Assembly (NCBI GenBank): GCA_964584485.1
Contig: CAZPAT010000001.1
Coordinates: forward strand, 1 to 26,124
DNA length: 26,124 nucleotides
DNA from: an uncultured Bifidobacterium sp.
GTDB taxonomy: Bacteria; Actinomycetota; Thermoleophilia; Miltoncostaeales; Miltoncostaeaceae
Direction of reading: 5' to 3'
Shown: positions 1 to 3,949 of the stretch, piece by piece
Layout: each line of letters begins with the position of its first letter
Position numbering within the stretch: position 1 is the first letter of the stretch
Notes under the pieces: model-generated
The model's input: the letters and a program-made list of their open reading frames with translations, nothing else
Told to the model about the DNA's origin: nothing
Databases searched by the model: none
Made by a program: the position numbers and the translations under genes

Positions 1-1210
1 CGATCCAGAGCGGGGCCGTCATGGCGAGGCCCGTCGCCGGGCCCGATCCGATCTCGGGCACCGCCTGCAGGTAGAGCGCGAGGTTCATCACATAGACCGC
101 ACCGGCGCCCAGGGCCAGCACCACGCCCCGGCGCGTGGACCGGGCGGCCGGGGTCCGCGAGATGCGCAGTACGCCCAGGCCGGCTGCCGCGCCCAGGGAG
201 AGCAAGCCCGACAGCACGTAGGGCGTGGTGCGGTTCATCGCCACCTCGTTGGCCGCCAGAGACGTGACGCCGGCCACCAGCATGAGGGCCGCGAACGTCA
301 GGGCCACGGTGGTGGCGGAGCGCTGGCGATCGGGGCCCGCCTGCCGGTAGCCCGCCAGCATGATCCCCGCCGCAGCGAAGAGCGACAGGGCCAGCATCGC
401 ATTCGCCGCATGCTCCGCGGGGTCGCCACCACCGAACGGCGGTTCCATTCCGCGACGCGAGGCCTCGATCGTGATGATGGCGATGGCGAGCATGCAGGCG
501 GTGGCCCAGCGCGCGCCGCTTCGCCCCGCCACGGCGATGGCCCCGAGCAGCGCGATGGGCACCAGCGGGCCGATCTCGCCCAGCAGCCCGACCCACGCGC
601 ACGCCGTGACGCCGGCGAAGGCGGCCATGGCCACCGGGTGCCGGAAGGCCTCGGAGACGGCGAGGTCGGGGTCGCCCCATGCCAGCACGAACGCGCCGCC
701 CACCAGGAATCCGGCCATGTAGCCCATGAGCAGCCACCCCCCGACCTCCGCGATCCCGTACTGCGGCGGGATCTCGCCGGTGGCGACCAGCAGCGACGCC
801 GTGAGAGCCGCGCCCGCGATGCTGATGACGGCGGAGATACCGGCGAACCGCGTGGCCTGCGCCAGGTCGCGCAGCCAGCAGGTGGCGCGCTGAAGCCACG
901 TCGCGCAGGCCAGGCACGCCGCCACGTGGATCAGCACCGACATGGCCACGATGAGGAGGGGCCGGTCGTGCATGATCACCTGCCCCACGGTGTCGCCGAC
1001 GGCGATCGCCGGCCAGAAGGCACGGCCGAAGCGGGCCAGCAGGGCCGACCCGATCCCGGGCACGAGGAGGAGCGGCGACACCTCGAGGGCGGTCAGGACC
1101 ACCGTGTAGGACAGGAGCGTCGCGCCCAGCATCGCCACGGCGATCAGGGCCAGCAGGGCCCACCAGTGCGGCGATGCGATGTTCGCGCGGCGGGGGAGGA
1201 GCGCGTTCAC
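1..1210 (-). CDS. Polytopic membrane protein, MASE1 domain fused to an EamA/DMT-like domain (partial, runs off left edge)
   Basis: Hand-translated open minus frame (>=403 codons, no stop in window, so absent from ORF track). N-part has MASE1-like FGRAFWPAIAVG and GRSGARWA...GMEPPF; C-part has EamA-like NLALYLQAVPEIGSGPATGLAMTAPLWI. GTG at 1210 lies 7 nt after TAGGGT (alternative GTG at 1219). Confidence 0.75.
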   Translation of the reverse strand, partial: MNALLPRRANIASPHWWALLALIAVAMLGATLLSYTVVLTALEVSPLLLVPGIGSALLARFGRAFWPAIAVGDTVGQVIMHDRPLLIVAMSVLIHVAACLACATWLQRATCWLRDLAQATRFAGISAVISIAGAALTASLLVATGEIPPQYGIAEVGGWLLMGYMAGFLVGGAFVLAWGDPDLAVSEAFRHPVAMAAFAGVTACAWVGLLGEIGPLVPIALLGAIAVAGRSGARWATACMLAIAIITIEASRRGMEPPFGGGDPAEHAANAMLALSLFAAAGIMLAGYRQAGPDRQRSATTVALTFAALMLVAGVTSLAANEVAMNRTTPYVLSGLLSLGAAAGLGVLRISRTPAARSTRRGVVLALGAGAVYVMNLALYLQAVPEIGSGPATGLAMTAPLWI

Positions 1211-1226
1211 GGCGGTCACCCTACGC

Positions 1227-1259
1227 GAAGGGCCCGCCTCTCCCGAGCGCGGGCCCTTC
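1227..1259 (-). terminator. Hairpin terminator downstream of tRNA-fMet
   Basis: Perfect 11-bp arms GAAGGGCCCGC/GCGGGCCCTTC plus inner CTC/GAG pairs, closing a GGGA (GNRA) loop on the minus strand, 3 nt after the tRNA 3' end. Confidence 0.75.
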
Positions 1260-1262
1260 TCA

Positions 1263-1336
<74 letters not shown>

Positions 1337-1908: not shown

Positions 1909-2605
1909 CGCGCACCGGGTCGCCCACCGCGACCCACCCCGCGCGCACCACCCGGCAGCACGCGCCCACGTGGTTGCGGCGCTCGCGCGCCACGGCCGCG
2001 TGGGCGCGGGTGTCGCGCTCGGCGGTATCGGGATCGCGACTGAGCACGCCCGACCGGCGGGTGGCCGCGACCACCTCGATCTCGGTGGCGGAGCCGATCC
2101 GCAGGCGCAGGCCACGCCAGTCATCCTCCGGGAAGGCCACGTCGTCGCCGCAGTCCACCACCAGGTTCGGCCGCAGGCGCCGCCGGTCGACGTCGTCCCC
2201 CGCCCACCCCGACACGCGGCGGATGGTCTCCTCCGTCAGCAGCGCCACCGGCTGCGCCGCGTGCGCGCCCGCCGGCGCGCGGATGACCGCCACGGGCTCA
2301 TCGTCCTTGCGCCCGAGACCGCGACGGACCTCGTCGGCCAAGCGCATGTCGCCCCAGGGGATCACCGCGCCGGACGGTGAATCCACCTGAACCCCGCTGC
2401 CGGTGACCGGGTCATCACAGCGGGCGCGGTAGCGCAGCAGCGCGGGCTCGCGCACCGCCACCAGCGGCTCCCCGGTCGCGGCGTCCACCACCGCGCACTG
2501 GCGATCCCCGACCAGGCCGAGCGGGCCGATGAAGGCCCGCCGCAGGCGTTCCCCCGACATCGACGCCACCGGGTAGCGCCACAGATCGGACACCACGCCC
2601 ACCAT
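1898..2605 (-). CDS. MOSC-domain protein (YcbX/mARC-like), conserved Mo-ligand Cys replaced by Ser
   Basis: MOSC_N WRYPVASMSGE and GDRQCAVVD; C-domain RRLRPNLVV, FPEDDW, TRRSGVLSRDPDT; start set at ATG 2605 (ORF-track extension overlaps next gene). Confidence 0.85.
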   Translation of the reverse strand: MVGVVSDLWRYPVASMSGERLRRAFIGPLGLVGDRQCAVVDAATGEPLVAVREPALLRYRARCDDPVTGSGVQVDSPSGAVIPWGDMRLADEVRRGLGRKDDEPVAVIRAPAGAHAAQPVALLTEETIRRVSGWAGDDVDRRRLRPNLVVDCGDDVAFPEDDWRGLRLRIGSATEIEVVAATRRSGVLSRDPDTAERDTRAHAAVARERRNHVGACCRVVRAGWVAVGDPVRVTP

Positions 2606-2613
2606 CGGGAGTC

Positions 2614-2796
2614 CTACGTGAGGATGATCGCGAGGACGATCACGAGGATGAGCAGGATCGCGAGGGTGGCGTACACCAGTCGCACGGCGCGGTTGGCGCC
2701 CTGCGCCACGACCTTGGCATTCTCGCGCTTGCGCGCGATCGTCTCCGGGTCGGTATCCCGCTCCGGCCAGTCGTCGTCTTCGTCGTCCCAGCCCAT
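2614..2796 (-). CDS. Small single-pass membrane protein (60 aa), unknown function
   Basis: Acidic N-terminus, basic linker, C-terminal hydrophobic helix; GC3-rich codons; TAGGCT-N6-ATG leaderless-type start. Confidence 0.7.
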   Translation of the reverse strand: MGWDDEDDDWPERDTDPETIARKRENAKVVAQGANRAVRLVYATLAILLILVIVLAIILT

Positions 2797-2826
2797 GGGT
2801 TGAGCCTACCCGCGGCACCCCGCGCG

Positions 2827-2854
2827 CCGCCGGTGGGCGGGAGCCCACCGGCGG
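2827..2854 (-). terminator. Hairpin terminator after sigma factor gene
   Basis: Perfect 12-bp arms CCGCCGGTGGGC/GCCCACCGGCGG with 4-nt loop, 12 nt past the stop codon; no U-tract (actinobacterial type). Confidence 0.75.
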
Positions 2855-2866
2855 TGGCGGATGGGT

Positions 2867-3949
2867 CTAGGCGACCTCGGCCAGCCCGCGCACGTCCATC
2901 ATGCCGGCCAGCTTCTGCAGGGCCTGGTTCTCGATCTGCCGGATGCGCTCGCGGGTGACGTTGAACGTACGGCCGACCTCATCGAGGGTGCGCGGCTGCT
3001 CGCCGCCCAGGCCATAGCGCAACTCCAGCACGCGGCGCTCGCGGTACGACAGCGAGTTCAGCACGTCCTGCAGCGCCTCATTGCGCAGGGTCTCGTCGGC
3101 GGCCGCCTCGGGCGAGATGGCCTTCTCATCGGCGATGAACTGCCCGAACTCGGACTCCTCCTCGTCGCCGACCGGCTTCTCCAGCGACACGGGCGTCTGG
3201 GCGCTGCGGCGGATGGACTCCACCTCGGCCTCGGTGAGGCCGATCGACGCGCCGATCTCGGCGTTGCTGGGGTCGCGCCCCAGCTCGGCCAGCAGCTTGC
3301 GCTCGGTGCGGTTGATCTTGTTCAGCTTCTCCACCACGTGCACCGGCATCCGGATGGTGCGGCCCTTGTCGGCGATGGCGCGGGCAACGGCCTGGCGGAT
3401 CCACCACGTGGCGTAGGTCGAGAACTTGTAGCCCTTGCGGTAGTCGAACTTCTCGGCCGCGCGCACCAGGCCCAGCGTGCCCTCCTGGATCAGGTCCAGG
3501 AACGCCAGCCCCTGGTTGCGGTAGTTCTTTGCGATCGACACCACGAGGCGCAGGTTGCTCTCGACCATCTTCTGCTTGGCCTGGAGGTCGCCCTCCTCGA
3601 TGAGCTTCGCGAGTTCCACCTCCTGCCTGGCCGTGAGCAGCGGGATGCGGCCGATGTCGCGCAGGAAGAGCTGCAGCAGGTCGGTGGTGCTCTCGGCCTT
3701 GGCGGCCACGCGCCGGGGCCGCTCGGCCTCCTCGGCCAGCTTGGCGCGACGCTCCTGGGCCTCGGGCTCCTCGAGCAGTTCGATGCCCATCTCGTCGACG
3801 TGCGTGTACAGGGCCTCGGCGTCCTCCTGGACGATGTCCATGCCCTGCAGCGCCTCGGCGACCTCCTCGATGCCGAGGAAGCCCTGCTCCTGCCCACGGG
3901 TGAGGAGCACCTGCATCTCCTCGTTGCCCACGATCTCCTTGAGCGTCAT
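2867..3949 (-). CDS. rpoD: RpoD/SigA-family RNA polymerase sigma-70 factor (possibly a group-2-like paralogue)
   Basis: Region 1.1 (GQEQGFL..EEV), 1.2 ([17 protein letters not shown]), 2 ([33 protein letters not shown]), 3 (SLEKPVG), 4 ([21 protein letters not shown]). Confidence 0.92.

Follow-up and report, generated by a model that had tools for sequence, protein, structure and literature searches.

A MASE1-DMT fusion gene at the end of a contig

We analysed a stretch of 26,124 nucleotides (the window) that makes up positions 1 to 26,124 of contig CAZPAT010000001.1 in assembly GCA_964584485.1. At its left edge lies most of a minus-strand gene that joins, in one reading frame, a MASE1 domain to a DMT/EamA carrier domain; the gene encodes a 20-helix (10+10) inner-membrane protein whose two domains are held together by a fixed 10-residue cytoplasmic tether. 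Among the membrane input domains of kinases and cyclic di-GMP (c-di-GMP) enzymes in bacteria, MASE1 is one of the most widespread. The substrates of DMT relatives of the type found here are amino acids, amines, carboxylates, metallophores and flavins. The reading that we tentatively prefer, and against which the alternatives are weighed below, is that the MASE1 domain controls the carrier in cis.

The frame spans 406 uninterrupted codons, from window position 1219 down to base 2, and has not reached a stop codon where the window ends on the left. A first-pass annotation, made by a model from the letters alone, had described an uninterrupted, hydrophobic minus-strand frame ending at 1210; we find the same frame, and GTG 1210 coincides with that end coordinate. 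As the family alignment has an N-terminal consensus of MNxLxP and an AGGG Shine-Dalgarno-like motif lies at 1222-1219, 8 nt upstream of GTG 1210, we take this codon (1210-1208) as the true start in preference to the upstream GTG 1219. The window holds the first 403 of the 602 codons (2..1210, minus strand). The last 199 lie outside it, on the plus strand of another contig of the same genome (G000:C72:56-654), where the frame continues to a stop codon, so that the leftward extension proposed in the first-pass annotation could be completed. The left edge of the window is itself a contig end (G000:C1:1), and window positions 1..55 are identical (100%) to C72:1-55 on the opposite strand, i.e. a typical k-mer overlap at an assembly break inside the gene. 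The joined product from GTG 1210 has 602 residues and, start codon aside, differs at 5 positions from P0002, a protein of the same length (602 residues) for which assemblies from JGI and ENA have the gene on single contigs. The break was probably caused by strain microdiversity, since one sequencing run (X3) contains two co-occurring variants over window 11-235, with 1 and 18 differences across 225 nt, and a contig end in another metagenome diverges at window position 63.

The MASE1 half

Judged from sequence profiles and models, residues 1-298 form a true, if divergent, MASE1 domain with 10 helices; the domain proper, delimited by Pfam, profile matches, fold matches and AlphaFold2 (AF2) models, covers residues 14-288 (window 347..1171, minus strand). 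The window's own N-terminal half scores 15.8 bits against Pfam MASE1 (PF05231; E 0.008, profile positions 1-259 of 299), which is below the cut-off of 29.8 bits. MASE1 homology nevertheless holds at the level of the family, because matches that cover nearly the whole profile lie above the cut-off in relatives (P0020 with 35.6, P0029 with 33.8, P0031 with 43.5 and P0036 with 50.5 bits) and because canonical MASE1 proteins are recovered by the family profile. When the profile of the N-terminal half only was searched against 1.84 billion representatives, it returned first further fusions of ~590 residues and then canonical MASE1 histidine kinases and GGDEF, PAS, GAF and HD proteins; the canonical proteins were matched over their N-terminal ~280 residues with E-values of 1e-9 to 1e-7, and the kinases and cyclases reached by the family profile themselves score 107-172 bits on MASE1. 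Within the family, MASE1 is matched in 17 of the 25 aligned members at E<=0.01. After the MASE1 region Pfam gives EamA only, where a cytoplasmic output domain is usual.

The predicted structure points the same way. A separate AF2 model of the N-terminal half (mean predicted local distance difference test, pLDDT, of 88.8) has as its top six matches among the Swiss-Prot models of the AlphaFold Database (AFDB) the E. coli and Salmonella MASE1 proteins DgcE, DgcF, UhpB (twice), PdeF and PdeA, all with a probability of 1.00 and with TM-scores by query of 0.57-0.74 (DgcE 0.74, DgcF 0.66, UhpB 0.59). Beyond these six there is a steep drop, to TM-scores <0.26 and probabilities <0.3. No solved structure matching the N-terminal half was found in the copy of the PDB that we searched, by sequence profile or by Foldseek. 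Relatives above the Pfam cut-off, family profile and fold matches together bear out the first-pass reading of this part as MASE1, and the motifs that it had quoted are present in the family, where they are invariant or nearly so. The half of ~300 residues has 36 invariant positions, as well as conserved intramembrane Gly/Pro residues and charged turn motifs. An internal duplication of this half, to which similar GR..W motifs in two of its cytoplasmic hairpin turns had pointed, was rejected (hhalign of the halves, probability 0.1).

These results bear on an alternative in which the MASE1 bundle would itself take part in transport, for instance by offering a second path to the substrate, by coupling transport to ions or by forming a vestibule that recruits the substrate, so that the protein would be a 20-helix transporter. 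The bundle is a polytopic one of 10 helices with the conserved intramembrane Gly/Pro residues and charged turn motifs just described; its fold has no solved counterpart, we know of no ligand or signalling mechanism for MASE1, and Lacey et al. (PMC3718329) raised, as one possibility, the promotion of aspartate excretion by a MASE1 domain. However, the N-terminal model matches no transporter fold (the low TM-scores and probabilities given above cover everything outside MASE1), it has no carrier-type internal repeat by hhalign, and elsewhere MASE1 is joined to signalling enzymes. We consider a composite transporter improbable, and cis control of the carrier by MASE1 preferable to it.

Linker, topology and the DMT half

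The two domains are connected by a cytoplasmic, Arg-rich linker of residues 289-298 (window 317..346, minus strand), placed from the alignment, the K+R count, the end of a stand-alone relative and contigs that span it. It has 10 residues, a length that is constant in all 25 aligned family members, and is preceded by the invariant Tyr288 and opened by the invariant Arg289. A polar linker had been noticed in the first-pass annotation; its presence stands, whereas its position shifts from ~319-348 to 317-346. Averaged over the family, the whole protein carries 21.2 K+R on the loops assigned to the cytoplasm vs 3.1 on the outer loops (13.1 inside vs 2.2 outside for the MASE1 half), and because of this excess both termini and the linker are predicted to be cytoplasmic. 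The 10 helices found here agree with the 10-TM (transmembrane) proposal for MASE1 (PMC6510439). The domain boundary is marked independently by P0027, a natural stand-alone N-terminal half of 303 residues (complete gene at L063:143-1054; 57% identical over residues 1-298), because this protein stops just after the linker motif: it ends 2 residues past it, and there is no DMT remnant before an unrelated convergent gene.

According to sequence matches and models, residues 299-590 form a complete 10-helix DMT/EamA fold, for which transport activity is predicted. Its helices 1 to ~4 (residues 299-403) are encoded at window 2..316 (minus strand; fold search) and helices 5-10 on contig C72. The C72 continuation scores 47.4 bits against Pfam EamA (PF00892), in 2 stretches, and P0002 scores 41 bits, likewise in 2 stretches, with the first repeat weaker; EamA is matched in all 25 of the aligned family members. 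The full-length AF2 model built from the family alignment (pLDDT 85.6, predicted TM-score, pTM, 0.85) has 20 helices, and its residues ~295-585 match full-length solved DMT carriers, with a TM-score by target of 0.84 for LicB (7PAF). For YddG (5I20) the TM-score with the C-terminal half is 0.74-0.78 for full-length chains and 0.69 for a shortened chain; further fold matches are CntI (0.79), YijE, PecM and ImpX, the last being one among many equally good DMT matches. The first-pass annotation had named the lack of an EamA/DMT match or fold as decisive against its reading of this part; both the match and the 10-TM fold are present, and the reading holds. No kinase, GGDEF, EAL, PP2C or other soluble output domain was detected in the fusion protein by Pfam or fold search. 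Identity to the stand-alone DMTs found is 26-32%; genome G383 is represented among the weak DMT matches, but no conclusion here depends on it. No equivalog or specific NCBIfam model fits the half, which gives sub-threshold generic matches only; NCBIfam has no model for the combination of MASE1 and DMT.

Mean column identity is 77% in the C-terminal half, a high conservation that is compatible with function, and 66% in the N-terminal half (among sequences down to 47% identical). The conservation of the MASE1 half has to be set against the idea that it merely determines how long the carrier persists, either as a module sensitive to membrane proteases that sets carrier lifetime or abundance, or as a scaffold for insertion or stability, with no signal involved. 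Gly and Pro are frequent in MASE1 helices, and the MASE1 region of DgcE is needed for continuous proteolysis from the N-terminus; in the same protein, however, any membrane anchor, e.g. LacY TM1+2, supported proteolysis (PMC6510439). A domain of 300 residues with 36 invariant positions is more than that role would need, and a generic degron hardly explains an independent second DMT fusion (see below). A role in turnover or stability therefore has little to recommend it when compared with cis control.

Distribution and expression of the fusion

There is very little doubt that the MASE1-DMT architecture is real. At least 25 distinct full-length homologues of 587-614 residues were found in NCBI, JGI, ENA and Logan assemblies, and 14 species-representative genomes carry the fusion, all of which appear to be Thermoleophilia or Miltoncostaeales-type metagenome-assembled genomes (MAGs). 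When 300 genomes of the class were surveyed, the family was present at E<=1e-20 in 12 of 15 genomes that belong to the same genus as the window's genome, itself not counted, and in 0 of 286 others, and the complete matches always had one frame across both halves. The genus comprises Thermoleophilia genomes of 1.5-2.1 Mb (Miltoncostaeales-type MAGs) from marsh and coastal water, and metagenomes of marsh, salt marsh and seawater (at least 14 runs, at least 12 studies) contain DNA nearly identical to the window's gene. The part of the gene that lies in the window is covered by independent DNA runs with no indel or joint, and one contig of 1,279 nt spans the linker; the first-pass annotation had suggested mapping across the linker, and the contigs that do so are free of indels.

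The fact that the gene is broken over two contigs in the window's assembly might suggest that the assembly is chimeric, that a stop codon was lost or that contigs were wrongly joined. However, near-identical full-length genes lie on single contigs of independent assemblies, a single frame is kept in 12 genomes of the genus, and the conservation across the junction, the constant linker length and the independent contig over the linker are all contrary to a misjoined gene. An assembly artefact is excluded. The first-pass annotation had allowed that the fusion might exist in one assembly only, with two separate genes in relatives; instead the fusion is widespread, and no split gene pair was found among the family matches in NCBI, JGI, ENA, Logan and the genus census.

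Three candidates for a split form were considered and rejected: P0030 is a contig-end fragment, P0026 (435 residues on a contig of 1,556 nt) is a fragment judging by the size of the contig, and P0027 is a complete N-terminal half that has no adjoining DMT gene.

One genome of the genus has two tandem copies of the fusion family (G270:C79:206-1987 and 2048-3775, both on the minus strand). The gene is also present at 64-78% identity in species-representative MAGs labelled 'Bifidobacterium' (L011, L013, L014 and L017), labels that look wrong.

In metatranscriptomes, short contigs with 1 mismatch each were found in two libraries (X15 and X16) from two studies, one of them DNase-treated, and are a weak hint of transcription; the parts of the gene that have no RNA contigs in X15 and X16 carry no weight either way.

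A second fusion family and an independent fusion

The window's genome, which is 90% complete, has exactly two MASE1 matches, both fused to DMT; of its 4 DMT genes, 2 are these fusions and the other 2 are stand-alone. The second fusion, P0309 (593 residues; G000:C161:1553-3331, minus strand, equivalent to L027:553-2334, minus strand; relatives at L047 and L055), is above both Pfam cut-offs (44 and 32.8 bits) and shares ~30% identity with the window's protein, over the DMT half only. It heads a family of 28 clusters that is present in 10 of the 15 genomes of the genus. In relatives of this branch (P0310 and P0318) the fusion lies in the riboflavin operon, between ribBA and ribH, ~40 nt downstream of ribBA and on the same strand, which makes the P0309 branch a candidate flavin-related carrier; an Rfam search of this locus and related loci detected tRNAs only and no flavin mononucleotide (FMN) riboswitch. 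A sub-branch of the P0309 family, 53-55% identical to P0309 (L053:6001-7794 and L054:6001-7809), stands in a conserved, co-directional block with the order DEAD helicase, an open reading frame of 88 residues, fusion, trypsin-like protease, MoxR AAA, DUF58 and VWA/BatA.

A third protein, P0045 (650 residues), combines a strong canonical MASE1 (122 bits) with EamA (94.7 bits), and its 118 nearest relatives are all MASE1 kinases, PP2C phosphatases, cyclases or other non-EamA MASE1 proteins. In the MASE1 tree the Thermoleophilia fusions are grouped (Shimodaira-Hasegawa-like approximate likelihood ratio test, SH-aLRT, 98, with a long-branch warning), and P0045 is nested in a kinase-type clade (98); in the DMT tree P0045 falls with stand-alone DMTs of another actinobacterial family (96). 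Because both of its halves nest elsewhere, we infer that MASE1 was joined to DMT at least twice independently. The window's family and its deeper branch form a clade in the DMT tree (100). This tree does not resolve the position of that clade relative to the P0309 family, and a single clade of the two is not rejected (p-value of 0.50 in the approximately unbiased, AU, test). In the ESM Atlas only one large cluster has both domains (63 members, Actinomycetota).

The MASE1 content of the genome bears on the possibility that the protein is a transceptor, i.e. that a non-transporting DMT half senses a solute and, by contact between MASE1 domains, signals to a separate kinase or cyclase that has a MASE1 of its own. 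The membrane domain of UhpB, which is a MASE1, works with the transporter-like sensor UhpC, and UhpB is among the fold matches of the N-terminal half. The transceptor reading is weakened, however, because no MASE1 signalling protein was found in the 90% complete genome, and the DMT half, which would have lost transport, is the better conserved of the two halves. We regard such a sensor as very improbable, far less likely than a working carrier under cis control.

Comparison with known systems

The MASE1 signalling proteins DgcE, DgcF, PdeF/YfgF, PdeA and UhpB share with the fusion the N-terminal polytopic domain of ~300 residues, its fold, reciprocal profile similarity and a cytoplasmic C-terminal end. 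The fusion differs from them in its very divergent sequence and in having a DMT carrier in place of HisKA/HATPase, GGDEF, EAL, PP2C, PAS or GAF domains. From the other side, the DMT carriers with 10 transmembrane segments (YddG 5I20, LicB 7PAF, CntI, YijE, PecM and ImpX) have the same two EamA repeats, the same 10-helix fold and the same N-in/C-in topology, whereas the fusion bears an additional N-terminal membrane domain of 300 residues. UhpB-UhpC is likewise a case of a MASE1 bundle coupled functionally to a membrane protein of transporter fold, but there the two are separate proteins, the partner belongs to the MFS and the output is a kinase, whereas the fusion is one chain with a DMT and no kinase. 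The P0309 family and P0045 have the same MASE1-linker-DMT order and size (579-650 residues) as the window's fusion, although in P0045 both halves come from other lineages in both trees. A DMT-type riboflavin transporter (RibN, ImpX) would be expected to show linkage to rib genes or to an FMN riboswitch; no rib genes adjoin the window's gene, and Rfam gave tRNAs only, and no riboswitch, at its locus.

The protein is thus made of known kinds in a new combination, a membrane sensor-type domain with a carrier as its only attached module. The first-pass annotation had called the architecture one that it did not recognise, and this needs qualifying: the combination is already visible to automatic annotation, since JGI names some relatives in the P0309 family 'DMT-like permease/integral membrane sensor domain MASE1' (NCBI calls members of the window's family either 'EamA family transporter' or 'MASE1 domain-containing protein'), but we found no paper in the literature searched that discusses MASE1 together with EamA, with DMT in the relevant sense or with UhpB/UhpC; papers that mention both MASE1 and a permease proved to be unrelated. 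These genomes have almost no conventional MASE1 signalling proteins, and the only possible output of the fusion is a carrier in the same membrane, so that the role of MASE1 can be studied in a simple system of one polypeptide; the natural domain boundary allows transport with and without the N-terminal half to be compared.

Regulation of the carrier in cis

In the explanation that we prefer, the DMT half would be a working small-molecule carrier, and its regulatory module in cis would be the MASE1 bundle lying against it in the membrane. MASE1 would pass a signal from the membrane or the cytoplasmic face (a ligand, the redox or energy state, or a docking protein) to the conformational cycle of the carrier, and the output would be transport rather than a second messenger. 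We put the chance that this is the mechanism at close to even, if slightly short of it. The first-pass annotation had spoken of a 'sensor-gated' transporter and an 'exporter'; gating and the direction of transport are both inferences only.

Several lines of evidence give limited support to a coupling of the halves, among them the pTM of 0.85 for the whole-chain model. We count the recurrence of the arrangement in its favour, i.e. the second fusion family in the same genome, the independent P0045 and the fact that MASE1 in this genome occurs only fused to DMT. When the two halves were modeled as separate chains, they gave an interaction prediction score (ipSAE) of 0.45 (the median of 0.45, 0.63 and 0.41) vs 0.00 for the best control, with at least 87% of the contacts common to the runs and a partner pLDDT of at least 77. 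Two studies of MASE1 in other proteins also bear on the question: the MASE1 domain of YfgF works independently of c-di-GMP, with promoted aspartate excretion raised as a possible explanation (Lacey et al., PMC3718329), and in DgcE the GTPase RdcA docks on MASE1 (PMC6510439).

Several points weigh against this explanation. The predicted interface is graded as 'weak support', a mark that is reached by 58 of 80 solved complexes and by 2 of 110 mismatches, and values of 0.60 or below take in 7 of those 80 solved complexes and both mismatches. Two bundles on a tether of 10 residues would in any case sit side by side, whether they communicate or not. Since P0027 stands alone, a separate function of the MASE1-like half is possible. 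The link to the riboflavin operon belongs to the paralogue, whose DMT half is only ~30% identical to that of the window's protein, and the neighbourhood of the window's gene itself (see below) gives no clue to a substrate. The RNA contigs are fragmentary, and carry-over of DNA is possible. Finally, the family is known from sequences and predicted models alone, and to our knowledge no ligand or signal has been described for any MASE1 domain.

If cis control is correct, planktonic Actinomycetota with streamlined genomes may regulate transport at the level of the protein, by a sensor-type module. For the P0309 branch the position in the riboflavin operon supplies a concrete substrate hypothesis. 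A wider reading, which we think unlikely but worth stating, is that MASE1 in general serves, within the membrane, to read or set the conformation of a partner of transporter fold, either in trans (UhpB-UhpC and the YfgF aspartate effect) or, as here, in cis. The two or more independent fusions and a genome in which MASE1 occurs with DMT only fit this reading but do not prove it. If it were true, the fusion would be a 'Rosetta stone' for MASE1 and these actinobacterial proteins would be a minimal device with transport as its output and no need of a second messenger.

Genomic neighbourhood

The fusion gene is convergent with a gene for a three-domain multicopper oxidase (G000:C72:651-1553, minus strand; L002), with which it overlaps by 4 nt at its end. 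This arrangement is kept in relatives at 63% identity (L006 and L008), together with a pentapeptide-repeat protein. Genes for methylglyoxal synthase (MGS), a MOSC protein and a sigma-70 factor stand on the other side. The sigma-70 neighbourhood is retained in the family's deeper branch (P0186 and P0031), where a truncated globin gene (Bac_globin) shares the strand of the fusion and lies 16-31 nt upstream of it (L049:5496-7764 and L051:5589-7794); a stand-alone EamA gene and genes for a GMC oxidoreductase and an MMPL transporter come next.

The neighbourhood also bears on the possibility that the MASE1 half is a docking platform, i.e. a site in the membrane at which a separate GTPase, enzyme or membrane protein binds and controls or uses the carrier in trans. 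DgcE-RdcA, in which MASE1 binds RdcA (PMC6510439), and UhpB-UhpC are models for such a role, and MASE1 proteins that stand alone exist (PMC3718329; P0027 in this family). The globin directly upstream of the fusion in the deeper branch and the conserved block of protease, MoxR, DUF58 and VWA genes around the sub-branch of the second family would both be in keeping with a partner encoded nearby. However, no partner gene is conserved beside the window's family, whose neighbours vary between branches, and the downstream gene is convergent and therefore not co-transcribed. The idea also overlaps with regulation in cis, as a docked protein could be the signal. We judge a docking platform unlikely, though it comes first among the alternatives to cis control, followed in our order of preference by the composite transporter, the role in turnover or stability and the transceptor.

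Upstream of the fusion gene there are two minor features on its strand. An 8-bp perfect G+C hairpin (GGGCCCGC ... GCGGGCCC; window 1230..1256, minus strand), read from the sequence and with no T-run after it, stands between the 3' end of a tRNA gene and the start of the fusion gene; it may act in processing or attenuation, or have no role at all. The tRNA is a tRNA-Met (CAT) at 1263..1336 (minus strand; ARAGORN, and Rfam tRNA with 65.5 bits), 52 nt upstream of the fusion gene, and the same tRNA-Met is present in the equivalent region of L008 and L049.

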